Positions 28,640 through 64,000 of a stretch of DNA of 64,000 nucleotides are shown piece after piece (position 1 is the stretch's first letter; the number at the start of each line of letters is the position of its first letter). A program made the translations under genes and the position numbers. This DNA is from Patescibacteria group bacterium (GTDB lineage Bacteria; Patescibacteriota; WWE3; JAUXAW01; JAYEID01). The notes beneath the pieces were generated by a model, which was given only the letters and a program-made list of their open reading frames with translations, was not told the origin of the DNA and did not search any database. The stretch is taken from contig JAYEID010000002.1 of the NCBI GenBank assembly GCA_034659915.1, positions 2,089 to 66,088 on the forward strand, in the 5' to 3' direction.

Positions 28640-28922
28640 CAAACGTTAATGAACGCGAATACTACAAACACGAATCTACGCGAATCAAAAGCGAATAAAC
28701 GCGAATGTAGATTATTGGTGTACTAGTTAGCTGGGTATGAAAAGAAACCTAAGCTCCCGTCATTCTGGAACGGAGGTTGTCAAGGCGGAGTGATAGAATC
28801 TCGGCCCAAAGGGCCGGACGGGAGCGGATAAAAGGAAGACTCTATCAGGCTCGGGGGACCGAGCCTTCCAGAGTGACTGCCTTTTTGTACAAGTTACTAG
28901 TTACGAGTTGCCAGTTACTAAA
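28640..28922. repeat. intergenic composite: G-family ACGCGAAT repeats (28640-28710), hairpin-rich segment (28745-28885), H-family AGTTACTAGTTAC repeats (28888-28922)
   Basis: The same G and H repeat families recur inside CDS 29007..30950 (29826-30088, 30787-30822) and after genes at 25065-25105, 32642-32696 and 33388-33490. Confidence 0.55.
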
Positions 28923-29006
28923 TACTACATACTAAATATTAAATATTAAATATTAAATAGGGATATCAAGTAATGGGTTGCTAACTATTAACTACCAAAA
29001 AAACCA

Positions 29007-38164: not shown

Positions 38165-38198
38165 GAAAGGACGATATGAAAGGACGGGTCTTGCGAGC
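38165..38198. repeat. family-C half-site (GAAAGGACGggtcttgcgagc with local 13-bp duplication), right-hand inverted terminus flanking RAYT-1
   Basis: gaaaggacgatatgaaaggacgggtcttgcgagc. Its reverse complement matches 38883-38903 (gctcgcaagacccgtcctt). Confidence 0.75.
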
Positions 38199-38219: not shown

Positions 38220-38873
38220 TCAATCTAGCATTAAATATTTCAGATTGAGTTTTTCTGGTTCGGTTATTGGGGCTTCTGTGAATTTCTTGTATTCTACGTT
38301 TTTTGGTTCTGGGAGTTGGTCCAGTGTAGGATTGGTATTGATTAGGTTGTTGGGTTCATTGCCAATGTAAATGTGATAGCTGGACCACGGGTAATCTTCT
38401 GGGTTTCTAACTATGCCGGATTGACACGGGTTAAGATGAATATATCTGGAGAGGTTTAGTAAATCTGCATCGTCTGCTACCTCGCGTGCTTTAAATCTTC
38501 CTTGAAAAAGGGACCCGACACGCTCATATTTTTGATTGAAGTACATTACATAAGTGGTGCCAATTGTTCTCATAAAGTTACTTATGCTTTTTTCTTGGTC
38601 TAGTTGTTTGAGGATAAAGTGGAAGTGGTTGGGCATAAGTGTGTAAGCAATTAGACTAACTTTTTCTCTAAATTTGCCCAAGTTGGAAAGTCCCATCCTT
38701 GCGGAAAGGACGGGACTTTCCTTTCCCTTTTCTCTTAATATTAAATAGTATCGGAGTATGTTTGTGAAGTTTTTATAATCGGCGTAATCTACAAAAATTG
38801 TACGCTTTTCAACTCCGCGGTTGTAAATGTGGTAGTAGCCACCTTTGTGGAAAATAGTTTTTCGATAAGGCAT
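38220..38873 (-). CDS. REP-associated tyrosine transposase (RAYT; IS200/IS605-like HUH Y1 transposase)
   Basis: GYYHIYNRGVEKRTIF (TnpA_REP N-motif), HUH motif MPNHFHFIL, and C-terminal RYIHLNPCQSGIVRNPEDYPWSSY (catalytic Tyr plus NP...WSSY). It contains its own family-C hairpin at 38686-38722. Confidence 0.8.
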   Translation of the reverse strand: MPYRKTIFHKGGYYHIYNRGVEKRTIFVDYADYKNFTNILRYYLILREKGKESPVLSARMGLSNLGKFREKVSLIAYTLMPNHFHFILKQLDQEKSISNFMRTIGTTYVMYFNQKYERVGSLFQGRFKAREVADDADLLNLSRYIHLNPCQSGIVRNPEDYPWSSYHIYIGNEPNNLINTNPTLDQLPEPKNVEYKKFTEAPITEPEKLNLKYLMLD

Positions 38874-38882
38874 AAGATTAAG

Positions 38883-38918
38883 GCTCGCAAGACCCGTCCT
38901 TGCAAACGTCCTTGCAAA
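38883..38918. repeat. family-C half-site (gctcgcaagacccgtcctt plus duplicated cgtccttgcaa), left-hand inverted terminus flanking RAYT-1
   Basis: gctcgcaagacccgtccttgcaaacgtccttgcaa. Inverted relative to 38165-38198. Confidence 0.75.
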
Positions 38919-41063: not shown

Positions 41064-41270
41064 CTTTTCCCTTTTCGAGCGATTCTTGGAGCGAGAAATC
41101 ACAGTAAGAGAATTTATTCCTATTTTGACTTAATGAGACTTTCCGCTTTGTTGGGATTCGTTCGAAATGGTCCATAGGGTTACTTACCTTTTCGAAGGAG
41201 TCCCGACTGAGGAATCACAATATAAGAAGATCCCTATTTTGATTTCTCCCCAGGCCTCGAAAAGGGAATT
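41064..41270. repeat. two tandem ~100-bp repeat units (TTTTCCCTTTTCGAGCGATTCTTGGAGCGAGAAATCACA...TTTATTCCTATTTTGATTTCTC) upstream-flanking GIY-YIG gene
   Basis: The units share a conserved TTTTCGAG...CTCGAAA inverted pair. Two further copies lie at 41590-41775. Confidence 0.7.
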
Positions 41271-41589: not shown

Positions 41590-41775
41590 TTTCTTCCTTT
41601 TCGAGCGATTCTTGGAGCGAGAAATCACAATAAAAGGATTTATTCCTATTTTGATTTCTCAGAGTATTTCGAAATGGGTGATAGGTTTATTTCCCTTTTC
41701 GAGTGATTCTTAGAGCGAGAAATCACAAAAGAAAGATTTTTCCTATTTTGATTTCTCGGCAGACCTCGAAATGGA
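41590..41775. repeat. two further tandem copies of the ~100-bp repeat flanking the GIY-YIG gene
   Basis: ttccttttcgagcgattcttggagcgagaaatcacaataaaaggatttattcctattttgatttctc / tttcccttttcgagtgattcttagagcgagaaatcacaaaagaaagatttttcctattttgatttctc. Confidence 0.7.
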
Positions 41776-43167
41776 TCTGTTGCCCTGAAAAGTTTCTAGA
41801 TAAGTTTCTGCAACAGCTTCCCACCTATAACCCTTCGCCATTTCTTTCGCATTTTCTGCTAAGTTTCTGCGTAATTCTGCATTCTTTTCTAATCTTATCA
41901 TCTCTTCCGCGAGTTCCTCGGCGTTTTTAGTTTCGAAGAGAAGTGCGGTTTTTCCATCTTCAAGTATTTCGGCGAGGCCCCCAGTCTTAGAGGCAATTAT
42001 TGGTTTACCTGCTGCTGCTAACTCTAAGGCAACAATGCCGAAGGGTTCTCTGTACGAGGGGATAATTGTAAAGTTTGCGTTTTGTATGTATTGAAGCAGT
42101 TCGATCCCTGATTTGAATCCCACAAAGCTGATTTTTTCCTCTAGGTTTTTTACTTTTACTAATTTTTCTAATTCTTTGCGGCTGGTACCGTCGCCGACAA
42201 TAACTAAATTACTGTTCAACTCGTCTTCTACTTTTGCGTAGGCTTTGATTAAGGTATCCACACCTTTTTTTGGTACTAGACGGCCGAGGTAAAGAATGTA
42301 GGGGGAAAGACTCGCCAATTTTTGAGGGTCGGCTAACTTCTCAACCGCCGCACCTGCCTGCCGGCAAGGCAGGTTCCCTAGCCTCTGGGGCTGCGGAAAA
42401 GAAGCCCCAGGGGCTTCTCCTGCGGCGGCGCAGGCACCTACTTGGGCTAAGGGGCAGCCGGTGCAGGATGATTTTGTGGGTGATAAGTCCCGTCCTTTTT
42501 GTAAGGACGGGACTTTACTTTTTAAAAGGTCTCCGATTTGGAAAAATTTTTGGTCAACACCGTTAGCAATTATTTCAATTTTCTTCTCGGCTTGGGGAAA
42601 GTTATTGGTAAGGTCTTCTTTTATGTATTCGGAGTTAACAATAATTTTTCTTGCGCGGTTAATTAGTTTTTTTAGGAAGAACCGGTACCACAGCTTTTTT
42701 CCAAAAACTTGTAGATCATTGCCGTGGATGTTGAGGATTAGAGGTGCAGGGTTGGGTGAGAATAGGTCGCCGCATTCCTCAGCCCCAGGGGCTGGGTCCG
42801 CAGAAGCCCCTGGGGCTTCTCCTGCGGCTAACGCTAACCAGACATAGACCGAGGAATCGTCCGGAAAGTGGTAGTTGACAATGTCCGGGTTATATTTAGA
42901 AACAAGTCGAACGAGATTGGTTAGACCGGTTAGGAAACGAAAGGGGAACGCAAGGAAACCCAGAAGTGATCGCGGTAAGTTTAACCAGACTCGTTGAACA
43001 TCTATGCCGTCCACTTGAGCTTTTTTCTCTTTTGCCTTACCCATTTGGGAAGCAATAACTAATACTTCATGACCCTTTGCTTTAAATTCTTTTGCCAGAT
43101 TTAAAACAACATTTTCGACCCCTCCAGTAAAAGGAAAAAATCTGGAAGAAATTAAAAGTATTTTCAT
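41743..43167 (-). CDS. glycosyltransferase family 4 (GT-B) carrying two family-A inserts and one family-C insert
   Basis: MKILLISSRFFPFTGGVENVV N-terminus; C-terminal EPFGIVALELAAAGKPIIASKTGG (E-x7-E). Inserts are translated as LAAGEAPGASADPAPGAEECGDL (42769-42828), GACAAAGEAPGASFPQPQRLGNLPCRQAGAAV (42354-42428) and KVPSLQKGRDLSP (42485-42517). Confidence 0.8.
   Translation of the reverse strand: MKILLISSRFFPFTGGVENVVLNLAKEFKAKGHEVLVIASQMGKAKEKKAQVDGIDVQRVWLNLPRSLLGFLAFPFRFLTGLTNLVRLVSKYNPDIVNYHFPDDSSVYVWLALAAGEAPGASADPAPGAEECGDLFSPNPAPLILNIHGNDLQVFGKKLWYRFFLKKLINRARKIIVNSEYIKEDLTNNFPQAEKKIEIIANGVDQKFFQIGDLLKSKVPSLQKGRDLSPTKSSCTGCPLAQVGACAAAGEAPGASFPQPQRLGNLPCRQAGAAVEKLADPQKLASLSPYILYLGRLVPKKGVDTLIKAYAKVEDELNSNLVIVGDGTSRKELEKLVKVKNLEEKISFVGFKSGIELLQYIQNANFTIIPSYREPFGIVALELAAAGKPIIASKTGGLAEILEDGKTALLFETKNAEELAEEMIRLEKNAELRRNLAENAKEMAKGYRWEAVAETYLETFQGNRSISRSAEKSK
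42354..42428. repeat. composite family-D hairpin plus family-A element, in-frame in GT4 gene
   Basis: ctgcctgccggcaaggcaggttccctagcctctggggctgcggaaaagaagccccaggggcttctcctgcggcgg. Confidence 0.8.
42485..42517. repeat. family-C full hairpin (AAGTCCCGTCCTTtttgtAAGGACGGGACTT), in-frame in GT4 gene
   Basis: aagtcccgtcctttttgtaaggacgggacttta. Near-identical copies at 63758-63791, 55603-55642 and 38686-38722. Confidence 0.85.
42769..42828. repeat. family-A element in-frame in GT4 gene
   Basis: gccgcattcctcagccccaggggctgggtccgcagaagcccctggggcttctcctgcggc. Confidence 0.85.
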
Positions 43168-43203: not shown

Positions 43204-45036
43204 TTGTGCTTTAATAGAGGTGTGAAGATAAAGAAGCTCTGGCGTGAAATTTCTATTTTTCTTTTCTCTGTTTTTTTGCGCTTGCCAAAGCTTGGCACGG
43301 GAATTTTCAACGCAGATGCTTTTCGTTGGAAAGCGCGTTCCTATAATTTTTGTAGTGGTTTGTTTGGTTTAGACTTTGCACAAACTGTCCAGTCTTCGCA
43401 TCCTGGGGTTACGCTGATGTGGATTGGAACTGTGGGGATAAAAGTGTACAACGCATTTAACAGTTTATTTCGCGGTTCTTTACCTAGCGGAGATCAGCAA
43501 GTATTTGAATTGCACTTTGTGCAGAAGTTTTTTGTTGTGTTGGTATTTGCCGCTCTTTTTAGTTTTGCTTTTTACCTTTTGCGGAGATTGACAAACACTA
43601 CCATTGCTTTTTTTGCTGTGCTGCTTTTAACTTTTGAACCTCATTTTTTGGCTCACACTAGGATTTTTCATCTTGATGGGCTACTTTCCATGTTTATGTT
43701 TGTTTCTGTGTTGGCACTCCTGTGCTATTTCGAGTTTTCGGGGAATCAAAATAGGGAGGTCAGCGGCGGTGATGAAGGCCAGCCAATTCCTCAACTCCGG
43801 AGGTTAAATCGAACTGCCGCATTCCCAAGCCCCAGGGGCTTCTGCGGACCTAGCCCCTGGGGCTTTCCATGCAGCGGTTTTCCCTTGCTAGTGTGTTTGA
43901 TGCTTTCCGCGGTGTTTGCTGGCCTGGCTTTGCTTACTAAAAGCACCGCCTTATTTCTTATTCCTTTTGTGGGTCTGTTTGTGTTATTGGAATTATTTTT
44001 AAAAAGGGTTCGTCCAGCCGCCTCTCTAATCTCCGAGGTTAAATCCGCAGAAACCTTGGAGGTTTTCCCGGCGGCCTCTTTGTGGAAGGAATATTTTTTG
44101 TCATTTGGGATTTGGATTTTGGTGCTTGCGGCAACTTTCACTGCTTTTTGGCCGGTAATGTGGGTGCAGCCTCTAAAAACTCTTCAACTTTATTATTCTG
44201 GTATTACTTTGGAAGGATTTGGCGGGCACGGAAACTACTTTTTTGGTCAACGGACTACAGATCCTGGACCCTTGTTTTATTTAATGAGCTTGTGGATTCG
44301 GTTGTCACCGTGGCTTTTGGTTCTGGTTGTTTATGAGGTTTTTTCTTGTACTGCAAAAACTCTAAGGTCTTTATGTCAAAAAGAAAAGTTGGGAGTTGTT
44401 TTAAAAAAGAAGGGTTTGACAGTGGCTTTTTCTCTTTTTGTCATTCTTTTTTACATTTTTATATCTGTTCCTTCCAAAAAGCTAGAAAGATATTCTTTGC
44501 CTTTGTACCCAGCCTTGGCTGTATTGGGTGGCGTTGGCCTGTATAATGCCAAGAAAATCTTGGTTGTTTGGCTGAAAAGGTTTGAACTCGGATTTTCAAA
44601 TCTCAAACAGGTTTTGATTTCTAGATTTAATGTAGTAGTGGCATTGTTGCTTTTTGTAGCCTTTATGGGTTCTACTCGAGGGTTGTTTCCGGATTATTTA
44701 GCTTACCGCTCGCCTTTGGCTGAGGGTTTGGAAGGTACTGTGGGTATAATACAGCCTGATTGGGTGTTTGGCGCTTCTCGAGTAGGTGAATTTTTTAATA
44801 GCTTGGAATTGGAAAAAACTCCTGTTGTTTATACTTTTAATCCTGGGCAGTTTCGACTATTTTTGCCTGGATATGTACGAGATACGCAAGATGTGGAAGG
44901 GCTGAGCACCGCAGACTTTATTATTCTTCCTGTTTGGTCGGAGCGTAATTTGGAAATAGATCCTGAGCTTTTTGATCTTGTTGAGGTGATAGAGGTTAAC
45001 AACACTCCTGTATATAATATTTACCAGGCGCGCTGA
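43204..45036 (+). CDS. GT-C-like membrane protein (HPGVTLMWIG paralog family) with a family-A insert read in an alternative frame
   Basis: FRWKARSYNF...HPGVTLMWIGTVG matches the 33572/35145 paralogs. The family-A element at 43817-43877 is translated here as RTAAFPSPRGFCGPSPWGFPCSG rather than the GEAPGAS-type peptide. Start codon is uncertain. Confidence 0.5.
   Translation: MCFNRGVKIKKLWREISIFLFSVFLRLPKLGTGIFNADAFRWKARSYNFCSGLFGLDFAQTVQSSHPGVTLMWIGTVGIKVYNAFNSLFRGSLPSGDQQVFELHFVQKFFVVLVFAALFSFAFYLLRRLTNTTIAFFAVLLLTFEPHFLAHTRIFHLDGLLSMFMFVSVLALLCYFEFSGNQNREVSGGDEGQPIPQLRRLNRTAAFPSPRGFCGPSPWGFPCSGFPLLVCLMLSAVFAGLALLTKSTALFLIPFVGLFVLLELFLKRVRPAASLISEVKSAETLEVFPAASLWKEYFLSFGIWILVLAATFTAFWPVMWVQPLKTLQLYYSGITLEGFGGHGNYFFGQRTTDPGPLFYLMSLWIRLSPWLLVLVVYEVFSCTAKTLRSLCQKEKLGVVLKKKGLTVAFSLFVILFYIFISVPSKKLERYSLPLYPALAVLGGVGLYNAKKILVVWLKRFELGFSNLKQVLISRFNVVVALLLFVAFMGSTRGLFPDYLAYRSPLAEGLEGTVGIIQPDWVFGASRVGEFFNSLELEKTPVVYTFNPGQFRLFLPGYVRDTQDVEGLSTADFIILPVWSERNLEIDPELFDLVEVIEVNNTPVYNIYQAR
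43817..43877. repeat. family-A element (variant arrangement) inside CDS 43204..45036
   Basis: ccgcattcccaagccccaggggcttctgcggacctagcccctggggctttccatgcagcgg. Confidence 0.8.
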
Positions 45037-50898: not shown

Positions 50899-52773
50899 AT
50901 GCTTAAGAAAATAAAAATAGACAGACTTCTTTTAGTCATTTTTGTTCTTGCTCTTATTCTTCGTCTTTTCGGTATCTGGCACGGTTGGCCGTTTATTTAT
51001 AATATAGATGAACCAGCTTTGGTTCGGAGTGCTATTGGGATTCGTTTTAATCCTAATCCTGGACATTTTGACTGGCCTCATTTGCATTTTTATCTTTCTT
51101 TTGGTGTTTTAGCTTTTTTTTACCTAGTTCGCGGTTTTTTTCAGATTGTGGGTTTGCAACTTCTTTTGATGCAGATAATCCCGTTCTTTTGGAAAGACCC
51201 CGCAATCTATTACTTGATTGTGCGTGTTTTTAATGCGCTTCTTGGTGCGCTGACTATTGTTCCTGTGTATCTTACAGGGAGGGTTTTGTTTGTAGGGGAG
51301 GAGGTTGTCGCAGGAGAAGCCCCTGGGGCTTCTGCAGACCCAGCCCCTGGGGCTGAGGAATGCGGCGGGGGAGATTTGGCGGGCCGTCAATCCAGCTCTC
51401 GCAAGGACGGGTCTTTCCTAGGCCGTTGGTTCGGTGATTTTAGTAATATAGCTTCTTTGCTTTCTGCTTTGGCGTTTGCGGTCTTTCCACTCCATGTAAG
51501 AGATTCTCACTTGGCAACAGTTGATGTTCCTATGGTGTTTTGGCTTGCTTGGTCCATGTATTTTGCGGCGAAAGTTTTAAAAAGTTCTGCTTGGCGCAAT
51601 TATATTTTTGCTGGAATATTTGCAGGGTTGGCTGCTTCAACTAAGTATAACGGTGTCTTTATTTTGTTAGTTATTGTTTTGGCACACTGTTTGCAAATTT
51701 GGTTAAAAAGCCAGGGAGAAGAAACAAAGTTTGTTGCGACTTTTTTCTCAAAGAAGCTTTTGAAAGTTTTTGTTTCTGGGCTCTCTGCTCTACTTGTTTT
51801 CTTTCTTGGTACTCCTTACATTCTTTTTGATTTTAAAACCTTTTGGTCTTATGAGTATGGGCGGGGTTTTCTTTGGTTGTTAGAAGAAACTGGTAGTGTT
51901 TCCAGCTGGGCGGAGTATTTTGCCAATTTTAAATATTTAAGTTCTTTACCTAAGGATCTTTCTTGGACCCTTTATTTAATAGTCCTTTTTTCAATTGGTG
52001 AGTTTTTATGTTTACTACTTAAAAAGATTATTAAGATAGAATTTAAATTACCTGTCAGAATGAATGTTTGCAAGGACGGGTCTTGCCAAAGTGCTTTTTC
52101 ATGGCAATTAGCGAGACTTGCTTTTTTGCTCTTCTTTCCTGTTTTTTATTGTTTATTTGTTATGCGGGGGAAGAAGTTTAATCCTCACTATTTCTTAGCG
52201 GTATACCCGTTTCTTGCATTGGTAGTGGGAAGATTTACAGCAAAAATCGGTCGTTTTGCTAGTTATTTATGGAATTCGGCAGAAGTACCAAGCACCAGAT
52301 CACAAAATCTAAATAAATCTCAAGTTTCAAAACGACAGATCAAAAATAGGGGCGGCGAAGGTGGGACATTTGGGATTTCCGCGCGTAGCGTACTCTTTGC
52401 ACTTATCTTGTTTGTTTTTGTAGTTCCTTTGTATCGCTCTTTTTACACTGGGTTGGTATATTCACGTGTAGATACGAGAACGCAAGCTAGTCAATGGGTA
52501 GGTGAAAATGTTTCGCTGGGATCTAGGGTTGCAATTGTAGGAACAGAAACTATTGAATTAACTGTAGAAGGTGTAAAGTATAAGACATACAAAAAGCTTA
52601 GTATTTTGGATAAGTTTGGGCAATACGATTTTGTGCTTGTTACTAATGAAAAACAAGATTATATGCTGGAAAAAATGGCTGATAATGGTTTTGAATTAGT
52701 TCAGGAGTATAGTAACGAAAAACCAACTCGCCGCGGTCCTTATGTTTGGATTTTTAAAAATATACAAGAGTGA
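50899..52773 (+). CDS. GT39/ArnT-PMT-like glycosyltransferase (GT-C) with family-A and family-C in-frame inserts
   Basis: YNIDEPALVRSAIG (DE loop-1 motif of ArnT/PMT enzymes) and many TM helices. The insert VVAGEAPGASADPAPGAEECGGGDLAGRQSSSRKDGSFLGRW is encoded by 51308-51368 plus 51399-51417. A second family-C-derived CKDGSC lies at 52069-52088. Confidence 0.6.
   Translation: MLKKIKIDRLLLVIFVLALILRLFGIWHGWPFIYNIDEPALVRSAIGIRFNPNPGHFDWPHLHFYLSFGVLAFFYLVRGFFQIVGLQLLLMQIIPFFWKDPAIYYLIVRVFNALLGALTIVPVYLTGRVLFVGEEVVAGEAPGASADPAPGAEECGGGDLAGRQSSSRKDGSFLGRWFGDFSNIASLLSALAFAVFPLHVRDSHLATVDVPMVFWLAWSMYFAAKVLKSSAWRNYIFAGIFAGLAASTKYNGVFILLVIVLAHCLQIWLKSQGEETKFVATFFSKKLLKVFVSGLSALLVFFLGTPYILFDFKTFWSYEYGRGFLWLLEETGSVSSWAEYFANFKYLSSLPKDLSWTLYLIVLFSIGEFLCLLLKKIIKIEFKLPVRMNVCKDGSCQSAFSWQLARLAFLLFFPVFYCLFVMRGKKFNPHYFLAVYPFLALVVGRFTAKIGRFASYLWNSAEVPSTRSQNLNKSQVSKRQIKNRGGEGGTFGISARSVLFALILFVFVVPLYRSFYTGLVYSRVDTRTQASQWVGENVSLGSRVAIVGTETIELTVEGVKYKTYKKLSILDKFGQYDFVLVTNEKQDYMLEKMADNGFELVQEYSNEKPTRRGPYVWIFKNIQE
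51308..51368. repeat. family-A element (canonical 'forward' copy) in-frame in GT39-like gene
   Basis: tcgcaggagaagcccctggggcttctgcagacccagcccctggggctgaggaatgcggcggg. Confidence 0.85.
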
Positions 52774-54828: not shown

Positions 54829-56178
54829 ATGAAAATTATTTTTCTTTCTAACCAACTCTTCGACTACCCTTTAAAGACCAACAAATGGCACGTGGCTACC
54901 CGGGTGGCTGAGCGGGGGCATCGAGTTCTTTTTATTGATCCTCCAATTCGTTTTCGCAAAGTAATAAAACAAATTTTCCAAGGGCGTTGGGGTTTGGGAA
55001 GGTTACTTTCAGGGTTTTACGCTCCGGTCGGCAATTCCCCAAAGCCAGGTTCTGGGACTGGTCTTAGAACCTGGCTTTTGTCCTTGCCGATCGCTACTTT
55101 AAAAGTCTTTACCCCTCTGACCTCTGTGCCTTCCGAATCACCAAACCTTACTCGTTTCAACGTTAACCGAATGAAAAGGAGGGTTCCGGAATTTTTTGAT
55201 GGCGAAGCTATCCTTTGGGTTTATAATCCAGCAATGATTGAGTATATTGAGAAGATACCACACAAGTTATTGGTCTATGATTGTGTGGATGATTATCCTT
55301 CTATGGCTAATTACCAGCGGCTGGGGCTTTCTGATGAGATTGCGAAGAAGGAGGAGCAGATTGCGAGCCGTGCTGACCTTATTTTTGCAACAACTAAAAA
55401 TTTGGCGGAGAAGCTCCGGCAGCGGAATGACAACGTTTATTACGTGGGAAATGCGGGAGACTATGCACGCTTTGCCCCTGCGGCTAAAGCGGAAATTATA
55501 ACCCGCCAGCCCGCTTCACCGAATCGAGGCGAGCCGGCGGACAAATTTCAAATTTCAAATGAAGGAGAAGAAAGAAGAACCGGCGAGGAAAAGTTGCCAA
55601 AGGAAAGTCCCGTCCTTGCGGCTCAAAGGACGGGATTTTCCGGAGTACCAAAACCAATTATCGGCTTTACCGGAGCAATTGACGATTACAAAGTGAACCT
55701 CCCTCTTCTTGTTCGAGTTGCTAAGGACCATCCGGAAAAATCTTTAGTTTTGGTAGGACCAACTGGAGTAGCGGGCGACCAGCCTGATCTTTGTGACCTT
55801 AAAGGACTTGAAAATGTTTATTTTATTGGCGAACGTCCGTATGAAGAAATGCCCGCGTTTTTTGCCCGGTTTGATGTTTACATTATTCCCTATAATCTAA
55901 ACGACTATACGGTAAAGGGTTGTTTTCCGGTTAAGTTTTTGGATGCTTTGGCGGCTGGATTGCCCACTGTGGTTACCAATCTCCCTGCCTACGAAGATTT
56001 TGCTGACGTTTCTTATATTGCTGGAGATGACGAGGAGTTTGGTAAGTTGATTCAAAAAGCATTAGACGAAAATTCCAAGGAGAAAGTAGAGAAGCGTATG
56101 CGCATTGCTCGTCAAAATTCATGGAACAATAAGGTGGAAAAAATGCTTCAGATTGTTACTTCAAAGCTTTCTTCGTAG
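54829..56178 (+). CDS. GT-B-fold glycosyltransferase (GT1/GT4-like) with family-B and family-C in-frame inserts
   Basis: C-terminal half ...LVLVGPTGVAGDQ...FDVYIIPYNLNDYTVKGCFPVKFLDALAAGLPTVVTNL is GT-B-like. GNSPKPGSGTGLRTWLLSLP comes from the family-B element at 55030-55090. PKESPVLAAQRTGFSG comes from the family-C hairpin at 55603-55642. Confidence 0.55.
   Translation: MKIIFLSNQLFDYPLKTNKWHVATRVAERGHRVLFIDPPIRFRKVIKQIFQGRWGLGRLLSGFYAPVGNSPKPGSGTGLRTWLLSLPIATLKVFTPLTSVPSESPNLTRFNVNRMKRRVPEFFDGEAILWVYNPAMIEYIEKIPHKLLVYDCVDDYPSMANYQRLGLSDEIAKKEEQIASRADLIFATTKNLAEKLRQRNDNVYYVGNAGDYARFAPAAKAEIITRQPASPNRGEPADKFQISNEGEERRTGEEKLPKESPVLAAQRTGFSGVPKPIIGFTGAIDDYKVNLPLLVRVAKDHPEKSLVLVGPTGVAGDQPDLCDLKGLENVYFIGERPYEEMPAFFARFDVYIIPYNLNDYTVKGCFPVKFLDALAAGLPTVVTNLPAYEDFADVSYIAGDDEEFGKLIQKALDENSKEKVEKRMRIARQNSWNNKVEKMLQIVTSKLSS
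55030..55090. repeat. family-B element in-frame in plus-strand GT gene
   Basis: gcaattccccaaagccaggttctgggactggtcttagaacctggcttttgtccttgccg. Same DNA orientation as the two copies that are translated on the minus strand in CDS 38922..41036. Confidence 0.8.
55603..55642. repeat. family-C full hairpin in-frame in GT gene
   Basis: gaaagtcccgtccttgcggctcaaaggacgggattttcc. Confidence 0.8.
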
Positions 56179-56245: not shown

Positions 56246-56770
56246 TTGAGATGTAGAGTACAAGAGGGGGTAATAGCGGTGAATGATGAATGGGTGGGTC
56301 GGGTAATAGGGTGTTTGGAAGATTGGGATTTTGAGTCTGCTTTGAAAGAGGCAGAGGAAGCTTTGGAGGTTGCAGATACTCCTGAGAAGAGAGGTGAGGT
56401 TTACTTGTTAATTTCAGCTGTGGCTGAGCACACAGGGGATCGAGGTAAAAGGGGAGAAGCCCTATTTAAGGCTCTAGAGATATTTAGATCCTTAGGTGAT
56501 AGAGCTAAGGAGATTCAAGTCTTGGCTCTTATTGCTGATGCTCATTTAGAAAGGGAAGCAGAGTCAGCAGTTGATGATGCGCTCAATTGCTATAGTGAGG
56601 CATTAAAAATTGCTTTGCACGATAAAGCGCTATATCGACAGCTGTTGCCTCGCATTTTGAGTGGTGTGGGCAGTGCTCTTGTAGTTAGGGATTCGGAGTT
56701 GTCGAGAGAATTTTTCAAGCTTAGTTCCCGGCTTGAAGAAAAGTACAAGGAGGAGCTAGAGAGTGACTAA
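56246..56770 (+). CDS. hypothetical all-alpha protein (174 aa), GC-richer than locus
   Basis: ORF with helical, repeat-like composition (TPR-like?). No firm motif. Confidence 0.35.
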   Translation: MRCRVQEGVIAVNDEWVGRVIGCLEDWDFESALKEAEEALEVADTPEKRGEVYLLISAVAEHTGDRGKRGEALFKALEIFRSLGDRAKEIQVLALIADAHLEREAESAVDDALNCYSEALKIALHDKALYRQLLPRILSGVGSALVVRDSELSREFFKLSSRLEEKYKEELESD

Positions 56771-57029
56771 GGCAGATCTACAGCGAGTGGTTTTTGGTTT
56801 TGTCATAATTTTCTTGTTGGGGATACATATAGTGATTGCAATGTTTATACCCTTGCCGGAAAGGTTTCCAATACTGGTGTACGCGATTCTTGCAATCTTG
56901 GCTGTTATCTGTGTAGGCTTGCTGATAATTGCATATGCGGCATTAGTAAGAAGGGAGTGGGGAACGGGATGCGGTGCTGTCGGTTTCTACTTGATTATAA
57001 TGTTGCTGGCATTAAGGCAGTATATATAG
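56763..57029 (+). CDS. small hypothetical membrane protein (88 aa, 3 TM)
   Basis: Overlaps the upstream ORF by 8 bp and is followed by a strong intrinsic terminator. Confidence 0.35.
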   Translation: MTKADLQRVVFGFVIIFLLGIHIVIAMFIPLPERFPILVYAILAILAVICVGLLIIAYAALVRREWGTGCGAVGFYLIIMLLALRQYI

Positions 57030-57042
57030 TTTTCAACATGAG

Positions 57043-57091
57043 CAGGGAAGCTCGAAGGAGTATCCCTGCTTTTTTTTTTTTTTTTTTTTTT
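57043..57091 (+). terminator. rho-independent terminator: hairpin CAGGGAAGCTCGAAGGAGTATCCCTG followed by ~22-nt T tract
   Basis: Six-bp GC-containing stem followed directly by t(22). On the opposite strand the A-tract lies just 3' of the ABC ATPase gene, so it may act bidirectionally. Confidence 0.7.
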
Positions 57092-57111
57092 GGAAGGCGA
57101 AGAACTGGGTT

Positions 57112-58086
57112 TTAATAGTTATTAAAAATCTTTCTAATAATTTCTTCTAGGTGTGGTTCATCAATAGACAAATCGTCTACAGGAAATTCAGAAAGTAGTT
57201 TTGCTGCTCTTTCCGTTGCTTCTTTTCTGGGAACTTGAATAATTGCTTTATGTGGTGTGAATTCAGTTACTTTACCTATTTTCTCGAGGTCTTTTTCTTT
57301 TACATCATTTCCAAAGATCACAACTAATATTTTGTAAGTGGCGTGATCAGTAATTAGTTTTTTAACGGGTCCATCGAAGGCAAGAGCGCCTTTGTTTATC
57401 ATAATTACCCTCTCGCATAGGCTTCTGACATCTTCCATGTAGTGGCTGGTGAGAATAATTGTTGCTTTGTATCTTTTGTTATATTCCTGAATAAAATCGC
57501 GAATTTTCTTTTGCATTACTACGTCCAAACCAATTGTTGGCTCGTCAAGAAAGAGAACTTTTGGTTGGTGGAGGAGTGAGGCGATCAGCTCGCACTTCAT
57601 TCTTTGTCCCAGGGAAAGCTTTCGAACTTGCACGTCTAAAATCTCTCCAATATCTAAAAGTTCAACAAGTTCATTCAGAGTTTCTCTATATTGTTTTTCC
57701 GGAACCTCGTAGATTTCTTTATTCAGCCGAAAAGTTTCCTGGGCCGGCAGATCCCACCAGAGTTGGTTTTTTTGTCCCATGACCAGAGAAATTTGTTTTT
57801 TAAACTCGTTTTTCCGGTCTTTTGGTTCGTAGTCTAGAACGGTCACTTCGCCTGCGGTAGGGTAGAGGAGCCCAGAAAGACATTTTAAGGTTGTTGTTTT
57901 CCCTGCGCCATTAGGACCGATAAAACCAACCAGTTCCCCCTCGTCAATTGAAAAATTGATCCCGTCCACCGCTTTTACGTTTACGTACTTTCGTTTAATT
58001 AAAGATTTTAGGGAACCCTTTAGTCCGGGTTCTTTATGAAAAACTCTGTAATATTTTTTTAAATTTTTAACTGCAATTGCCGCCAT
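57112..58086 (-). CDS. ABC transporter ATP-binding protein (ABC-2 exporter type)
   Basis: Walker A GPNGAGKTTT, signature LSLGQRMKCEL, Walker B VLFLDEPTIGLD, H-loop SHYMED. Confidence 0.9.
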   Translation of the reverse strand: MAAIAVKNLKKYYRVFHKEPGLKGSLKSLIKRKYVNVKAVDGINFSIDEGELVGFIGPNGAGKTTTLKCLSGLLYPTAGEVTVLDYEPKDRKNEFKKQISLVMGQKNQLWWDLPAQETFRLNKEIYEVPEKQYRETLNELVELLDIGEILDVQVRKLSLGQRMKCELIASLLHQPKVLFLDEPTIGLDVVMQKKIRDFIQEYNKRYKATIILTSHYMEDVRSLCERVIMINKGALAFDGPVKKLITDHATYKILVVIFGNDVKEKDLEKIGKVTEFTPHKAIIQVPRKEATERAAKLLSEFPVDDLSIDEPHLEEIIRKIFNNY

Positions 58087-58152
58087 TGGGTGAATTGTAG
58101 CATAGTCCTATTTAGTAAACCCTTTTCTTATTATGACTATTGTTACAATAAT

Positions 58153-58180
58153 ATCTAGAGGCTGCCTCTAGATAAGGTTG
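58153..58180. repeat. family-E 28-bp palindromic element (ATCTAGAGGCTGCCTCTAGATAAGGTTG), 3'-flank of RAYT-2
   Basis: TCTAGAGGC/GCCTCTAGA is a perfect 9-bp inverted repeat. An identical copy at 59012-59041 lies in direct orientation on the other side of the gene. Confidence 0.85.
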
Positions 58181-58183
58181 TTT

Positions 58184-58960
58184 TTACAGTGTGTTCTTGA
58201 ATTGTTCTCGTAAATGCTTTTTGTAAGCCTTTTTTTGAGATCTGAACTTTTGGAACCAACCAAAATCATCATCTAAGGCTACTGTTTCTAGACGTAGAGG
58301 CTCAAATTCGTCGACTTCAGCCATGACAAATTCCAAGTATTCTCTAGGGGACTTAAACAAGCTAGTTACAACTTGGGGGTTAATAAAATTGCCATAATTT
58401 TCTTCTAGGTATGTAGATAAGCTAGACCACGGGTACTCAACTAGTTTATTTTTGCTTTCCAGCCTGAGCTTACGTGGGTTAATGTGTTGATATCGAGTTA
58501 GATGTACCAACTGTTCATTTGATTCTATTAGAACACTTTTGTAAGGTCCTTCAAACAACCGGCCAGTTCTTTCTAGTCTAATATTAAAGTAGTTAGTGTA
58601 TGCAACGCCAATTTTGTGCATGAAAAAAGAAATACCATCTTTTACTCGCTGTTTAAGTGTAATGTGGTAATGATTAGGCATTAAGCAAAAGGAAATTATG
58701 TCTACTGGAGGCTTGATTCGTTTTTGTTCTAAGTGTTTTAGAATTGTCTGTTTGCTGGGCTCTGTTTGTGACTGTTTAAGTCGTTTTAGTAGGGTACTGT
58801 AAGGATAATCGTATTTTAAGTAATGCTTAAGGAGGAAAATAAAACGTTTGTAGTAACTGGGGTCAGGAAATGTTTCGCGCTTTTCTACTCCTCGGTTGTA
58901 TATGTGGTAGATTCTCCCTGTTCTTAAAGGGTTTCTATCCATCGAGTTAATGATACTCAA
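58184..58960 (-). CDS. REP-associated tyrosine transposase (RAYT-2; IS200-like HUH Y1 transposase)
   Basis: GRIYHIYNRGVEKRETF, HUH motif MPNHYHITL, C-terminal RYQHINPRKLRL...EYPWSS. About 35-40% identical to RAYT-1 by eye. Confidence 0.8.
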   Translation of the reverse strand: MSIINSMDRNPLRTGRIYHIYNRGVEKRETFPDPSYYKRFIFLLKHYLKYDYPYSTLLKRLKQSQTEPSKQTILKHLEQKRIKPPVDIISFCLMPNHYHITLKQRVKDGISFFMHKIGVAYTNYFNIRLERTGRLFEGPYKSVLIESNEQLVHLTRYQHINPRKLRLESKNKLVEYPWSSLSTYLEENYGNFINPQVVTSLFKSPREYLEFVMAEVDEFEPLRLETVALDDDFGWFQKFRSQKKAYKKHLREQFKNTL

Positions 58961-59011
58961 TCTTTTATCTTTTGTAAAGCTTTTAATTGTTTTTTTGTTG
59001 TTGGTGAAGGG

Positions 59012-59041
59012 ATATCTAGAGGCTGCCTCTAGATAAGGTTG
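59012..59041. repeat. family-E palindromic element, 5'-flank of RAYT-2
   Basis: gatatctagaggctgcctctagataaggttg. Confidence 0.85.
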
Positions 59042-59090
59042 CCCTTATAAGTAGTTTATTCAGGGTGGTGTTTTGGAAGTGTTTAGGTGG

Positions 59091-59879
59091 TTAGGAGGAG
59101 GCGGAGTTGTAGTGGCGGAGGGCAAAATGCCAGAAGCGGTTGGATAGGTAAAGGAGAATGAGGGCGGCGGTGGGGAGCCAGAAAGTTTCAAAAAGGCCGG
59201 CTTTGTTCAAGAGCACTTTTGTTGGTACGGCGGCTAGGATAAGTAGAGGTATGATAAGGGTGAAAAAAAGCATTGCCGATCTACTGAAGATTTCGGGTGG
59301 GTAGCGGGAGAAGCCGTAGAGGCTGATAAAAACTTCGTGGATTTCTCTGAGTTGAGGAAACCAGATGGCTGGCGTAACGCTAATGAACCATAGTGCATAG
59401 CACAAAATTACACTGCAGAAAATGAAAGATGCGTAGGTGAAAATGATTGGTATTGAGGGGGAAAGGTTAAGATTGCCAAGGCTATATATTATGATAAATA
59501 GGCCACTTACTAGAGGGGTTACGGTGAATAATCGAATTTCACGGGTTGAGACATAGAATTGGGATGATACGGGGAATAAGAGTGAAAAATCAAGGGTACC
59601 TTTTCGGACGTGTTGGACAACCCCGTGCATATTTTTGATGAAGGGGCCGAAGTACAATCCGCGGATAATATTAGCTGTTCCATATAGAAGCAGAATTTCC
59701 TGGTAATCCCACCCGCCTAGGGAAGTAATTTGCCCGAAAATGATGTGTAACCCGAGAACTCCAATAGTTACGTTAATCAGTTCCGCGATAGTGTGGGAGA
59801 TGAAGTTCACCCTAAACATAGATTCTTTGATAAAGGCATTTTTTATAAATTGTAAGTAGAGTTTTATGTATCTTTTCAT
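59091..59879 (-). CDS. ABC-2 family transporter permease
   Basis: Six TM helices. Adjacent to the ABC ATPase (with RAYT-2 inserted between them), the typical ABC-2 polysaccharide exporter layout. Confidence 0.55.
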   Translation of the reverse strand: MKRYIKLYLQFIKNAFIKESMFRVNFISHTIAELINVTIGVLGLHIIFGQITSLGGWDYQEILLLYGTANIIRGLYFGPFIKNMHGVVQHVRKGTLDFSLLFPVSSQFYVSTREIRLFTVTPLVSGLFIIIYSLGNLNLSPSIPIIFTYASFIFCSVILCYALWFISVTPAIWFPQLREIHEVFISLYGFSRYPPEIFSRSAMLFFTLIIPLLILAAVPTKVLLNKAGLFETFWLPTAALILLYLSNRFWHFALRHYNSASS

Positions 59880-59939
59880 GATTTTTTGATCGAAACCTTT
59901 AGGGATTGCTTCGCAAACCCTAAAGGATTCTCTGGTTTG

Positions 59940-60737
59940 CTAACTTCCGTAGGCTTCGTGGCGACGGATTCCAAAGTGCCAGATGATTTTTAAGATAATA
60001 TAGAAAGACAGTACCCAAAGTGCTTGAACAAAGAGACCCACGCCAATTTCTAGCATAGTAAGTTTTCCTAAATAGACGTCAATTGGGAAGGCATAAAGAT
60101 AACGAAATGGTAGTGCGTTGAGGACCTTTTGCCAGGAAGTGGGGAAGGCAGAGAGTGGAAGAAGGGCGCCGCCAACAAATTTGGAAATTGAGCCAATAAG
60201 ATAGAACAAACCACTGATTTCTGTTGTCCAAAAACCGGAAAGACCAATTATTGATGTGTAGAAAAGATTTAAAAAAAGAGTTAGGGGAAGGACAAGGAGA
60301 AAAATCAAAGCCAGGTGTTGAAGGGAATTTGGTGGCAGGAGATAATTTTTGTAAATCCAAGCGAGCCCGATAAATACTGGTAGGCTGAGAATTGTATCAG
60401 CAATAAGGCGGGAGCCAAAAGCTTTTAAAAAACGAAAATGCAGGTAATGGAAGGGGAGAAGAAGGTAGTTGTTAATCTCCCCCGTCCCGATGTCGTGACT
60501 TATTCTCCAATGGATTGATAAGCTGGTTCTGTTCAAAAGAAATGAGAGAAAGCTGTAGGTAACCATTTCTTGTAAGGTATAGTTGCTAATCTGTTGGTTT
60601 GCATTGTAAACTGCCTGCCAGATAAGGATGGTTGTAACCAATGAAATTGCGGAAAGAGTTAACCTGAAGATTACTTTTGAGCGGGAAATTAACGTTTGTT
60701 CTATTGCAGTTTTTATTATTGCTTTTTCTTTTTTCAT
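59940..60737 (-). CDS. ABC-2 family transporter permease (second subunit)
   Basis: Six TM helices; paralogous topology to 59091..59879. Confidence 0.55.
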   Translation of the reverse strand: MKKEKAIIKTAIEQTLISRSKVIFRLTLSAISLVTTILIWQAVYNANQQISNYTLQEMVTYSFLSFLLNRTSLSIHWRISHDIGTGEINNYLLLPFHYLHFRFLKAFGSRLIADTILSLPVFIGLAWIYKNYLLPPNSLQHLALIFLLVLPLTLFLNLFYTSIIGLSGFWTTEISGLFYLIGSISKFVGGALLPLSAFPTSWQKVLNALPFRYLYAFPIDVYLGKLTMLEIGVGLFVQALWVLSFYIILKIIWHFGIRRHEAYGS

Positions 60738-60901
60738 TGTTCTCTAGTTGTATTTAGTTCGCGGGTTAAATAACTCATCCGCCAATTCCTCAACCTTGCA
60801 GGTTCCAAAAACCTCCAAGGTTTTTCCTTGGCGGTTCTTTGCTTTAGATTTTTCAGATCTCATTTAGTTTATCATAAAGGCTGTTTCATGCTATCATTTC
60901 C

Positions 60902-62209
60902 TTGATGAAAATTTGTTATGTTTTAAATTCGGGAGACCCCGGTGGGGTGGAACAACACGTTTTGGACCTGACGCGGGGAATGGTTGAACGTGGGCACGAG
61001 GTTTATGTGGTTTGTCCTTGGGGAAAGATGGTTAATAAATATTTTGAAATTGGAGCCCAAGTGCGGATAGATAAGCCCCAACTTGATGTTGACCCCTTTT
61101 ATATTTCACGGTTGGCCCGGTTTATTAATAAGATTCAACCGGATATTTTACATGTGCATATGTTGAAGACAACGGTGAACGGGTTGATTGCGTCTAAGGT
61201 TTTTAGATTGTCTTCTCGTATTTTGGGACAGCCCGGTTCCCCAACTTCCGCAGGAGAAGCCCCTGGGGCTGAGAAATGCGGTGCCCCTTCCTTGCCGGCT
61301 TCTTCATTGCCCTATACAGTTGCGCATATCCATACACCTCTTCCTGAGTGGCAAATTCCCGGGTGGAAGAAGAAGTTAAATATTTTTGTAAATAGGATAA
61401 TTTCTAATTGGGCGGCAGATGTGGTTATTGCTCTTACCGAATCTCGGAAAAGGGTTAAGATTGAAGGGGAGGGGATAGATCCAAAAAAGATACGCGTGAT
61501 ACCAAACGGAGTGGACACAAAAAATATCAAATTACAAATTTCAAATGACAAAGCAGATTACAGAAAGAAGTTGGGAATAAGGGAGGATGCTATTTTGGTA
61601 GGGACGCTATCTCGGCTGACAGTAGAGAAGGGAATAAGTTATTTAATTGAGGCAGTTCCTAAATGGCCAACATACAAAATACAAGATACTAAATGCGAAA
61701 TACTAATTGGGGGGTCGGGGGAGTTGAGAGAGGAATTGGAGGACAGGGCGCGGGAGTTGGGATTACAAGTTTGTGTAGAAGAAAAGTCCGCTGCAGAAGA
61801 AGCCCCAGGGGCTGAAGAATGCGGCGGTTCAGGTACAACGGTTCGGTTTCTTGGTTTTGTGCCCGAAGATGAGAAGTGGGATTATCTTGCTGCTTTGGAT
61901 ATTTTTGTTTTTCCTTCCCTTGCCGAGGGTTTTGGAATTTCTCTTATTGAGGCAATGGTAACTGGGTGTGCTTGTCTGGCTTCTGATTTGGAAGTTCTTC
62001 AGGAAGTAGGCGGGGAGACAGTTGAATTTTTTAGAGCTGGTGATCCGCAGAATTTAGCAAAGAGGCTGGCTGTTTTAATTAAGGACAAGGAGAAAAGGCA
62101 AAGTCTTGGGGATCGTGCTCAAAAGAGGGTGGAAAAAAAATATTCCCTGGAGTTGGTTTTGGATAATTACGAAAATCTTTATAAAGAGTTACGTTTAAAT
62201 TTTTCTTAA
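60902..62209 (+). CDS. glycosyltransferase family 4 (GT-B) with two short family-A in-frame inserts
   Basis: MKICYVLNSGDPGGVEQHVLDL...; C-terminal FPSLAEGFGISLIEAMVTGCACLASD (E-x7-E). The inserts SAGEAPGAEKCGAPS (61249-61282) and AAEEAPGAEECGGSG (61789-61826) are single-core family-A variants. Confidence 0.8.
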   Translation: MMKICYVLNSGDPGGVEQHVLDLTRGMVERGHEVYVVCPWGKMVNKYFEIGAQVRIDKPQLDVDPFYISRLARFINKIQPDILHVHMLKTTVNGLIASKVFRLSSRILGQPGSPTSAGEAPGAEKCGAPSLPASSLPYTVAHIHTPLPEWQIPGWKKKLNIFVNRIISNWAADVVIALTESRKRVKIEGEGIDPKKIRVIPNGVDTKNIKLQISNDKADYRKKLGIREDAILVGTLSRLTVEKGISYLIEAVPKWPTYKIQDTKCEILIGGSGELREELEDRARELGLQVCVEEKSAAEEAPGAEECGGSGTTVRFLGFVPEDEKWDYLAALDIFVFPSLAEGFGISLIEAMVTGCACLASDLEVLQEVGGETVEFFRAGDPQNLAKRLAVLIKDKEKRQSLGDRAQKRVEKKYSLELVLDNYENLYKELRLNFS

Positions 62210-62997: not shown

Positions 62998-64000
62998 AAT
63001 GAGAGTTTTATTTCAATCTCGGATAGATTTATTTGACCGCCGTGGAGGAGATACTGTGCAAATGGAAAGGACTGCACAGGAACTTAATAAACTCAGCGTA
63101 GATGTAGATATTGATTGTTCCCCAAGAAAGAATCTGTCTCAGTATGATTTGGTTCACCTTTTTAATATTGATTGGCCAGCCAATGTTTATCTGTGTGCAA
63201 GAAATGCGAAAAAACAAGGTAAACCTATTGTTCTTTCACCTATCCACCATTCTTTTGAAGAAATAGAACGTTACGAAAGGGAATATCAGTTCGGTCTCCG
63301 GCGCATAGTTAATCTACTTTTTAGAGGGCGAGAACAACGCGAAAAATTTAAAGATTTTTATCGGGCAGTAGTTGATCCAAAGAAAATACCTTCGACGATT
63401 GTCGAATTTAAGAAGGGAGTTATGGAGGAACAGCGGGAGCTTCTGGGAATGGTGCATGCCGTTTTGGTGCAAACAGAAGCAGAGACAGCTGATATTGTGG
63501 AGGATTTTGGTGTGTGTTTTTCGATCGCCGCAGGAGAAGCCCCTGGGGCTTCCAGAGTTCTAGCCCCAGGGGCTAGGGAATGCGGGGGCCGTGTTTACAA
63601 GGTGGTAAATGGTGTGGACCAGCGTTTTGCAAACGCTATGCCCGATTGGTTTATAGAGAACTACGGGTGGGAGGATTTTGTGGTTTGCGTGGGCAGGGTT
63701 GAACCTCGTAAAAACCAGTTAGCAGTAATTGCTGCCGGTTTCCGTTTGCGGGAGAGGCAAGTCCCGTCCTTTTCGCAAGGACGGGACTTTCAAACTCCCC
63801 AACTCCTCTTTGTTGGGAAGATTTCCTGGCGTCATCCGGAATATGCCTTGCGTTTTAAGAACTTGGTTAGAAAATATAATTGGATTAAACACATTGAAAG
63901 TATCCCTTATAAAAAGATGGGTTCGGTTTATGCAGCAGCAAACACCCACGTTTCTGCTAGTTGGTTTGAAACTACTGGTTTGGTAAGCTTAGAAGCAGGG
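62998..64000 (+). CDS. glycosyltransferase family 4 (GT-B), 3' end beyond window; carries family-A and family-C in-frame inserts
   Basis: Open frame from ATG 62998 with no stop before the window end, which is why it is absent from the ORF track. VVCVGRVEPRKNQ and ...ETTGLVSLEAG (E-x7-E region). Inserts AAGEAPGASRVLAPGARECGG (63527-63586) and RQVPSFSQGRDFQT (63758-63791). Confidence 0.7.
63527..63586. repeat. family-A element in-frame in partial GT4 gene
   Basis: gccgcaggagaagcccctggggcttccagagttctagccccaggggctagggaatgcggggg. Confidence 0.85.
63758..63791. repeat. family-C full hairpin in-frame in partial GT4 gene
   Basis: caagtcccgtccttttcgcaaggacgggactttc. Confidence 0.85.

Follow-up and report, generated by a model that had tools for sequence, protein, structure and literature searches.

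A RAYT-like Y1 gene between two identical hairpins in an ABC-transporter operon of a Patescibacteria genome: a probable minimal REPtron

Is a transposase-like Y1 (HUH) gene that sits inside an ABC-transporter operon, with one of two identical hairpins on each side, a mobile element, a piece of operon regulation or a resident enzyme with its own sites? The locus that raises this question lies in a 64,000-nt stretch of DNA, hereafter the window, from a Patescibacteria group bacterium (GenBank assembly GCA_034659915.1, contig JAYEID010000002.1, positions 2,089 to 66,088 of the forward strand). The gene is called RAYT-2, after the REP-associated tyrosine transposases (RAYTs; REP, repetitive extragenic palindrome), and its hairpins are called family E. 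A REPtron is a single-copy RAYT-like gene together with its cognate hairpins. The 891-bp hairpin-gene-hairpin unit of the window is probably a minimal REPtron, that is, a single-copy, vertically inherited Y1 gene of the RAYT/TnpA-REP-like kind with one cognate REP-like hairpin on each side. The unit belongs to an already known kind of system, not to a new one. Work on RAYT/REP systems has concentrated on Proteobacteria and Cyanobacteria, and a literature search found no specific description of the RAYT-2 family in Patescibacteria or the Candidate Phyla Radiation.

Two identical hairpins bracket RAYT-2

The unit is made up of one gene and two hairpins.

58184..58942, minus strand: Y1/HUH endonuclease gene (RAYT-2), RAYT/TnpA-REP type, 252 aa, with the motifs YHIYNRG, NHYH, RYQHINP, YPWSS and DDDFGWF
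59012..59041, minus strand: upstream family-E hairpin unit, exact match, -9.1 kcal/mol, z -3.75
58151..58180, minus strand: downstream family-E hairpin unit, exact match to the upstream copy, -8.6 kcal/mol, z -4.7
Search string for the family-E hairpin: TCTAGAGGCNGCCTCTAGA

The repeat is 30 nt long, ATATCTAGAGGCTGCCTCTAGATAAGGTTG, and its two copies (58151-58180 and 59012-59041, both read on the plus strand) match with 0 mismatches. A preliminary description of the locus, made from the letters alone, had reported that direct copies of a palindrome flank the gene, and the exact match bears this out. The two copies are indeed identical and in the same orientation, while their extent needs correction to 30 nt, the first copy being 2 bases longer than reported. 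That description had also seen no family-E copy elsewhere in the window, and no third copy is found there at up to 3 mismatches (shuffle expectation 0, n=100).

The core of the repeat is a perfect palindrome of 11+11 nt with a single base at its centre. When single-stranded, this DNA folds into a 3-nt loop on a 10-bp stem, with a free energy of -8.6 to -9.2 kcal/mol and, relative to shuffled sequences, a z-score of -3.8 to -5.1. On the gene strand the upstream copy reads CAACCT-TATCTAGAGGC-A-GCCTCTAGATA-T. The copies agree both in the central loop base and in the unpaired, non-palindromic CAACCT extension, so that the pair can be assigned a direct orientation. The order on the gene strand is permease 1, permease 2, 49 nt, hairpin, 69 nt, Y1, 3 nt, hairpin, 64 nt and ATPase, the upstream distances being counted from the stop of the second permease gene (perm2) and to the ATG at 58942, and the downstream ones from the Y1 stop codon and to the ATPase start. 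At Rfam gathering thresholds there is no match anywhere in the window.

RAYT-2 resembles TnpA-REP

The open reading frame (ORF; 58184-58960, minus strand) is open upstream as far as a TTG at 58960. The ATG at 58942, which gives a protein of 252 aa, is the likely start, judging from GenBank record MEA2020172.1 and the N-termini of homologues; in an exact-protein look-up the ATG-start form (P0001) is on record, and no record was returned for the TTG-start form. RAYT-2 matches the Pfam family PF01797 (Y1_Tnp) at 24.9 bits, just above the threshold of 23. In an alignment with 106 homologues, the two HUH histidines (H91 and H93, in NHYH), the tyrosine Y151, N155 and the pair W172-S173 are invariant, and P156 is nearly so. 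A profile search of the PDB returned E. coli TnpA-REP (4ER8) as the best match (E 4e-5), with ISDra2 TnpA at E 2e-3. The NHYH motif and Y151 of RAYT-2 align to the HUH motif and the tyrosine of 4ER8, to which the fold is also closest. The preliminary description had called this a RAYT gene, a call with which the invariant motifs and the fold agree; the catalytic tyrosine, on which that call hung, is present and invariant.

A Y1 gene between direct hairpins also recalls an autonomous IS200/IS605-like insertion sequence, in which the hairpins would be the left and right subterminal ends and the 0.89-kb unit would move by single-strand peel-and-paste. The direct hairpins do match the end architecture of that family. 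The protein points elsewhere: the tyrosine motif RYQHINP has the form Y-x-x-x-N-P, which defines class 2, the TnpA-REP class, of Quentin 2018, and not the Y-x-x-x-Q of IS200 subclass 1.1 (PMC6006769). Its 252 aa compare with about 150 aa for IS200 transposases (PMC6006769), and its fold is much nearer to TnpA-REP than to IS608 TnpA. As judged from the published table, the motif set of RAYT-2 (NHYH, F-E/Q, Y[QI]H[IL]NP, PWSS, ~250 aa) resembles subclass 2.1, which corresponds to Bertels group 1.

The same slot in related genomes

Three relatives were found via the window's ATPase protein. The state of the slot between perm2 and the ATPase gene in each of them is as follows, with identities given relative to the window.

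L006, GCA_964581885.1: slot occupied, same strand; ATPase 84%, Y1 61% identity
L102, GCA_964581615.1: slot occupied; ATPase 86%, Y1 59% identity
L103, GCA_964538555.1: slot empty, 24 nt, no hairpin, no Y1 gene; ATPase 78% identity

L006 also matches the window in its permeases (73-75% identity) and in a methyltransferase (78%). The permease gene order is that of the window in L006 and, without the Y1 unit, in L103; L102 holds only the 3' end of perm2. Since L103 has only 24 nt between its permease and ATPase genes, the earlier statement that the unit splits a contiguous ABC operon holds. Judged by sequence comparison, the Y1 unit is an insertion relative to a contiguous operon, and an old one, because the L006 slot holds an orthologous Y1 gene, 61% identical and with full clade support. 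In neighbour-joining trees the Y1 proteins of the window and L006 fall in one clade in 100/100 bootstraps, and the clade of P0001, P0004, P0005 and P0008 is likewise recovered in 100/100.

The preliminary description had offered as one option that the pair is young. This fits the identity of the two hairpins and nothing else, given the orthologous Y1 gene in the L006 slot and a further homologue in the L102 slot. A recent insertion of the Y1 unit was rejected on synteny and phylogeny. The idea that a pre-existing terminator was duplicated on insertion was also rejected, since the empty site has no hairpin. Nucleotide alignment of the occupied and empty sites did not define the insertion boundaries, the intergenic DNA being too diverged, with only a -10-like element in front of the ATPase start in common. 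For the annotation of the window, a 'transposase' label is no evidence for a recent insertion.

The hairpins of the three occupied slots are unrelated in sequence. The L006 hairpin is ATATTCAG-TCCCAGGTC-CTGAATAT, and its two copies are identical over 25 nt (30 nt for the window pair); the L102 hairpins have ACAAGAG stems, and their loops differ between the two copies. Since a pair can be identical within a genome while its sequence is wholly replaced between genomes, a state that independent mutation of the copies cannot maintain, we infer that some copying process acts on both copies, either an enzyme-mediated cut-and-rejoin or a conversion between them.

These slots bear on mobility in two ways. 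An IS200/IS605-like element would account for the existence of an empty site and for the occupant of the L102 slot, which comes from another sub-lineage; it sits less well with a slot that is conserved while the Y1 protein has diverged to 61% identity. The unit could also be a self-contained, cis-acting cassette whose enzyme excises the 861-bp segment, perhaps reversibly, leaving one hairpin and a contiguous operon. Exactly two direct copies tightly bracket the gene, as such a cassette would have it, and the different Y1 sub-lineage in the L102 slot could reflect cassette exchange. The slot is occupied, however, in both independent assemblies of the window's population (L001 and L005), and the empty site carries no hairpin remnant.

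The hairpin bracket across the family

For a survey of the family, 80 loci were fetched from metagenomes and a dozen from assemblies, of which 82 were usable. The 150 nt before each gene were compared with the 100 nt after it, and a shared segment with a score of at least 14 was counted as a bracket. By this test 67 of the 82 loci (82%) are bracketed, against 0 of 1640 shuffled controls. The median shared segment is 24 nt long, and 55 of the 67 contain a perfect stem of at least 6 bp. At the median, the upstream copy ends 21 nt before the start codon and the downstream copy begins 6 nt after the stop. Thirty-six pairs are direct and 20 inverted, and the remaining 11 are perfect palindromes of undecidable orientation. 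Direct orientation is the commoner state in the family, not a rule. Its preponderance suits an IS200/IS605-like element, but the one third of loci with inverted copies would not be tolerated by an end-specific single-strand mechanism, and simple excision of a cassette would be impossible at them.

Every surveyed locus has its own hairpin sequence, and the hairpins follow the proteins. Related hairpins are found in the one locus pair with proteins at least 80% identical (1/1), in 45% of pairs at 65-80% and 8% at 50-65%, and in essentially none of the 2131 pairs below 50%. Such co-variation marks a cognate pair of enzyme and site. Stems of the TATCTAG type are common to three loci (the window, L094 and L098), and inspection by eye found no convincing foot or cleavage motif conserved across loci.

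Additional hairpin copies stand in nearby intergenic DNA in L094 (13420 and 17178), L096 (11469), L009 (5832) and other loci. Together the sister loci hold about 15 dispersed copies outside Y1 genes in 376 kb, or some 4 per 100 kb. These extra copies indicate that the hairpins of the family behave as low-copy REPs, and they count against a self-contained cassette, which on the whole of the evidence is quite improbable.

In 17 of the 67 bracketed loci the cognate hairpin also occurs inside the Y1 ORF, at positions ~160-220 and ~450-515 nt from the start (for example in L044 at 6149 and 6170, L062 at 1822 and 2104, L064 at 2956 and 3253, L068 at 6109 and 6427, and L100 at 10180). Because the two positions recur while the hairpin sequences differ between loci, either concerted evolution of 3-4 copies or repeated insertion at the same spot is implied. 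That the cognate hairpin is often within the ORF itself also argues against an IS200/IS605-like element.

The family is large: there are 1147 word-indexed matches, of which every named one is from Patescibacteria, Parcubacteria or Microgenomates, and 15,434 representatives of 50%-identity clusters match at E <=1e-3, 139 of which reach 1e-30. Its members occupy many contexts (after a tRNA gene, between rplJ and rplA, in a pilus cluster), as might be expected of an IS200/IS605-like element.

Two further observations concern single loci of the survey. In L094 (9928-10798) a family member with its bracket lies between rplJ (L10) and rplA (L1) on the opposite strand, and even gene clusters that are highly conserved can evidently harbour family units over time. 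At three independent loci a tandem duplication of the hairpin's 3' half-arm stands right after the downstream copy, as in CCTGAATAT-GT-CCTGAATAT (L006 4796-4806, L009 ~4791-4800, L098 ~3409-3420). The window lacks this duplication, which may be a trace of end processing.

Copy number and mobility

In classical REP systems the cognate palindrome is dispersed, with more than 100 copies per genome. No family-E copy beyond the bracket was found in the ~73 kb searched from the source population (the window, a further 3.7 kb of L001, and L098), which is what a self-contained cassette would show. At the rate of ~4 per 100 kb, about 2.5 dispersed copies would be expected in a 64-kb window, with a Poisson P(0) of ~0.08; zero extra copies in the window are weakly informative. 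The hairpin core gave three single, unrelated matches (Calothrix, Paceibacterota and Actinomycetota) among species-representative genomes, a set that apparently does not include the source genome and is no guide to the family-E copy number; these matches look like chance.

In the ten look-ups of exact proteins (Y1 and ATPase) that found contigs, each protein stood in one genomic context, sometimes in several samples. The window has a second Y1 gene, RAYT-1 (38220-38873), 19 kb from RAYT-2 and 37% identical to it. Judging from accession numbers, the source metagenome-assembled genome probably carries a third, P0079 (MEA2020816.1), which is ~50% identical to RAYT-2 and has its own hairpin, CTAGATAAACGCATTGCGTTTATCTAG; a search for this hairpin in the window found it absent. 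GCA_964581885.1 has at least two Y1 genes, and P0004 and P0009 of that assembly are 54% identical. Overall, Y1 paralogues within a genome share 37-61% identity. The preliminary description had considered two RAYT/REP pairs within 20 kb to be unusual; with a probable third Y1 gene in this genome, at least two in GCA_964581885.1 and a very large family, they are not so in this lineage. For an IS200/IS605-like element, the lack of any exact protein in more than one context among the look-ups and the low identity of the paralogues are unfavourable, and this explanation of the unit is very unlikely.

Within the ORF of RAYT-1 (minus strand), at 38688-38724 and in frame, lies a palindrome of its own, AAGTCCCATCCTTGCGGAAAGGACGGGACTT. 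The gene is flanked by inverted single arms of this palindrome (~38176-38196 and ~38883-38903), which gives the flanks the look of terminal inverted repeats (TIRs). Further copies of the palindrome lie at 29340-29376, 42485-42521 (inside a glycosyltransferase gene) and 63759-63795.

Operon context and expression

The unit is flanked by the genes of the ABC transporter and contains a promoter-like site.

59940-60737 and 59091-59879, minus strand: two ABC-2 permease genes, upstream of the unit (PF06182, 84.2 and 157.6 bits)
57112..58086, minus strand: ABC transporter ATPase gene, downstream of the unit (PF00005, 101 bits)
58950..58978, minus strand: promoter-like site TTTACA-17 nt-TATCAT, the best consensus match in 56900-61000 (10/12 positions)

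The promoter-like site lies between the upstream hairpin and the Y1 gene, its end 7 nt away from the ATG at 58942. It weakly suggests that the Y1 gene has its own short-leader or leaderless transcript, the total of 10 promoter-like sites in 56900-61000 not being above chance (8.6 expected). In front of the ATPase gene stands a -10-like element, TGCTACAAT (58094-58102), whose end is 7 nt from the ATG. L006 (~4832-4841) and L102 (~997-1005) likewise have an extended -10 element of the TGnTACAAT type before the ATPase gene, and in the window and these two relatives 5-7 nt separate its end from the ATG; the empty site of L103 has a weaker -10-like element (TGTGGTAAACT, ~1958-1968), 8 nt before the ATG. 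The ATPase gene may be transcribed independently of the Y1 insert, as these predicted elements would allow, and the ABC operon is probably still functional. The presence of -10 elements 5-8 nt before the ATPase start in four genomes suggests leaderless or very-short-leader mRNAs in this lineage.

The hairpins themselves might act mainly at the RNA or transcriptional level, as terminators, stabilisers of mRNA 3' ends or insulators that set operon expression, and be kept alike by recombination with no action of the Y1 protein. A terminator scan marks the downstream copy as terminator-like on both strands, with the weak tail TTATTGTAAC. Both family-E copies lie at gene boundaries, the additional copies of sister loci separate convergent or co-directional genes, and REPs are reported to occur mainly downstream of coding regions and to be plausibly transcribed as RNA elements (PMC3733652). 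The upstream copy, in contrast, has no T-rich tail and is not flagged by the scan, and the two copies are identical in the loop base and the unpaired CAACCT foot as well. Generic terminators would not form a bracket in 82% of loci, nor would they track the Y1 protein, and the copies inside ORFs cannot be terminators. An RNA-level role is therefore highly doubtful as the main function of the hairpins, while as a secondary function it is compatible with a REPtron.

Beside the ATPase gene, a run of 22 T at 57070-57091 separates the convergent genes 56763-57029 and 57112-58086. It has 23 T in the independent Logan assembly L001, a difference that reflects either length heterogeneity or assembly uncertainty.

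Proposed mechanism and the evidence against it

In a minimal REPtron of this kind, the enzyme would bind the extruded form that the family-E hairpin, together with its 5' CAACCT foot, takes up in single-stranded DNA, and would cut and rejoin beside it, like E. coli TnpA-REP. Its activity, or conversion between copies, would re-template the hairpins, so that they stay identical within a genome and drift fast between genomes. Separate promoters for the Y1 gene and the ATPase gene would let the operon tolerate the insert, and transcription of the Y1 gene may stop at the downstream hairpin as well.

Several observations weigh against this interpretation. Canonical REPs have a 5' GT[AG]G foot on the hairpin. 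Neither GTAG nor GTGG adjoins the family-E stem on either strand, the foot on the gene strand being CAACCT, and the pair is direct, not an inverted REPIN-type doublet. The ~73 kb contain no further copy of the family-E hairpin and hence no sign of dispersal, the feature that defines a REP. RAYT-2 scores 37.6 bits against the NCBIfam model REP_Tyr_transpos (NF047646), short of the cut-off of 80 (RAYT-1 scores 68.3 bits), and its subclass-2.1-like motifs place it near a group reported as not REP-associated (Quentin 2018). The enzymatic activity of the protein is a prediction. Finally, the Y1 protein of L102 falls outside the window/L006 clade (0/100) and joins P0026 and P0054 (90/100). Strict vertical descent could thus not be the whole story, the slot having been re-occupied or an allele exchanged, or the distance tree could lack resolution at that depth.

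The L102 slot would also be explained if the bracket were no leftover of REP dispersal and served instead as a functional cis-element for a clade of TnpA-REP-like enzymes that spans the Patescibacteria and is new to description. Such an enzyme would re-template or exchange its own two hairpins (sometimes 3-4, including those in the ORF) and might excise or swap the cassette at a fixed slot. This would account as well for the identity of hairpins within a genome and their turnover between genomes; in this strong form the proposal is unlikely.

With the unit read as a minimal REPtron, its interest lies in what surrounds it. The locus and the 82-locus survey show that a large clade of TnpA-REP-like genes is present in the small genomes of Patescibacteria. 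Its hairpin bracket is very compact and stereotyped, the copy number of the hairpins is low, and hairpin and protein clearly co-vary. The three occupied slots and the empty one form a small natural series for studying how flanking copies stay identical while changing quickly, and they offer one way into the open question of what RAYTs do.

Other repeats of the window

The window holds several repeats apart from the RAYT-associated hairpins. Copies of a GC-rich palindrome (GAAGCCCCTGGGGCTTC and variants) are spread over this AT-rich DNA, mostly as in-frame inserts in long ORFs (2982-3039, 3215-3304, 40384-40441, 42368-42425, 42770-42827, 43817-43874, 51300-51368, 61225-61284, 61768-61827 and 63520-63588). 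The PGAE..CG stretches in the glycosyltransferase encoded at 60902-62209 are an example, and no cognate Y1 gene for this palindrome family was identified. A third palindromic family, CCAGAACCAGGTTCTGGGACCGGTCTTAGAACCTGGTTCT, has copies at 39428-39491, 40511-40574 and 55029-55092, all of them inside ORFs (38922-41036 and 54829-56178).

AT-rich intergenic tracts with a 7-nt period (GGGAATA, AAATACT and TTTGTAA types) occur at 2368-2619, 27976-28147, 28503-28613 and 28895-28973 and flank the small gene 28141-28533, among others. A 67-nt unit is present three times in the intergenic DNA upstream of the glycosyltransferase gene 41743-43167 (41065-41131, 41591-41657 and 41689-41755). The 3' ends of the genes 5508-7763 and 14849-16891 (7500-7763 and 16628-16891) are ~75% identical over ~260 nt and encode paralogous C-termini.

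Comparison with known systems

E. coli TnpA-REP (RayT/YafM; subclass 2.2 of Quentin 2018; 4ER8) shares with RAYT-2 the Y1/HUH core and the Y-x-x-x-N-P motif followed by aromatic-P-(F/W)-S-(T/S). Its REPtron, like the unit of the window, is a gene flanked by cognate palindromes, low in copy number and inherited in place. The two proteins have ~14% sequence identity, and RAYT-2 is the longer one (252 aa vs 165 aa), with a helical insert (~48-72) and a C-terminal extension that bears DDDFGWF; a Pfam search of this tail found no helix-turn-helix or DnaA_C match. Unlike the E. coli system, RAYT-2 has hairpins without the GTAG foot, one direct hairpin per side in place of inverted doublets, and no demonstrated high-copy dispersed hairpin family in the ~73 kb seen.

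Subclass 2.1 (Bertels group 1 RAYTs; the TIRYTs of Di Nocera 2013) resembles RAYT-2 in low copy number and divergent intragenomic copies. Its motifs are NH[YF]H, F[QE] for WQ, a Y[IV]HLNP-like motif and SS in the proximal tail, at a median length of 238 aa (PMC6006769 Table 1). The motif set of RAYT-2 fits, with membership judged from the motifs and not with the authors' profiles. The flanks set the two apart: those of subclass 2.1 are reported to have no REP-like structures, or long TIRs with a GGGGWSAS motif (PMC6006769), whereas the RAYT-2 family has short perfect hairpins, mostly direct. Nor is the unit a TIRtron in the sense of Di Nocera 2013, which has long TIRs, the flanks of RAYT-2 being self-complementary direct hairpins.

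Elements of the IS200/IS605 family (IS608, ISDra2) likewise consist of a Y1/HUH gene flanked by a pair of similar subterminal hairpins, both on the same strand, within ~0.7-0.9 kb. The RAYT-2 unit differs from them in its long-term syntenic residence, in having no multiple identical copies and in having no tnpB gene. Subclass 2.4, the cyanobacterial and Bacteroidetes RAYTs, offers a parallel for the in-frame palindromes inside Y1 genes, as seen in RAYT-1 and in 17 of the 67 related loci, since REPs inserted in their own RAYT genes have been described for it (Quentin 2018; PMC6006769). RAYT-2 itself differs from subclass 2.4 in having no internal hairpin copy, another motif set, and hairpins without GT[AG]G or a double foot. 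For a unit with atypical hairpin flanks, and no dispersed family in the ~73 kb covered, there are precedents: RAYT-type genes with REP-like or TIR elements occur in genomes without dispersed families (Di Nocera 2013; PMC3733652), and atypical flanking structures are described for subclasses 2.6 and 3, which also lack the GT[AG]G foot (Quentin 2018; PMC6006769).

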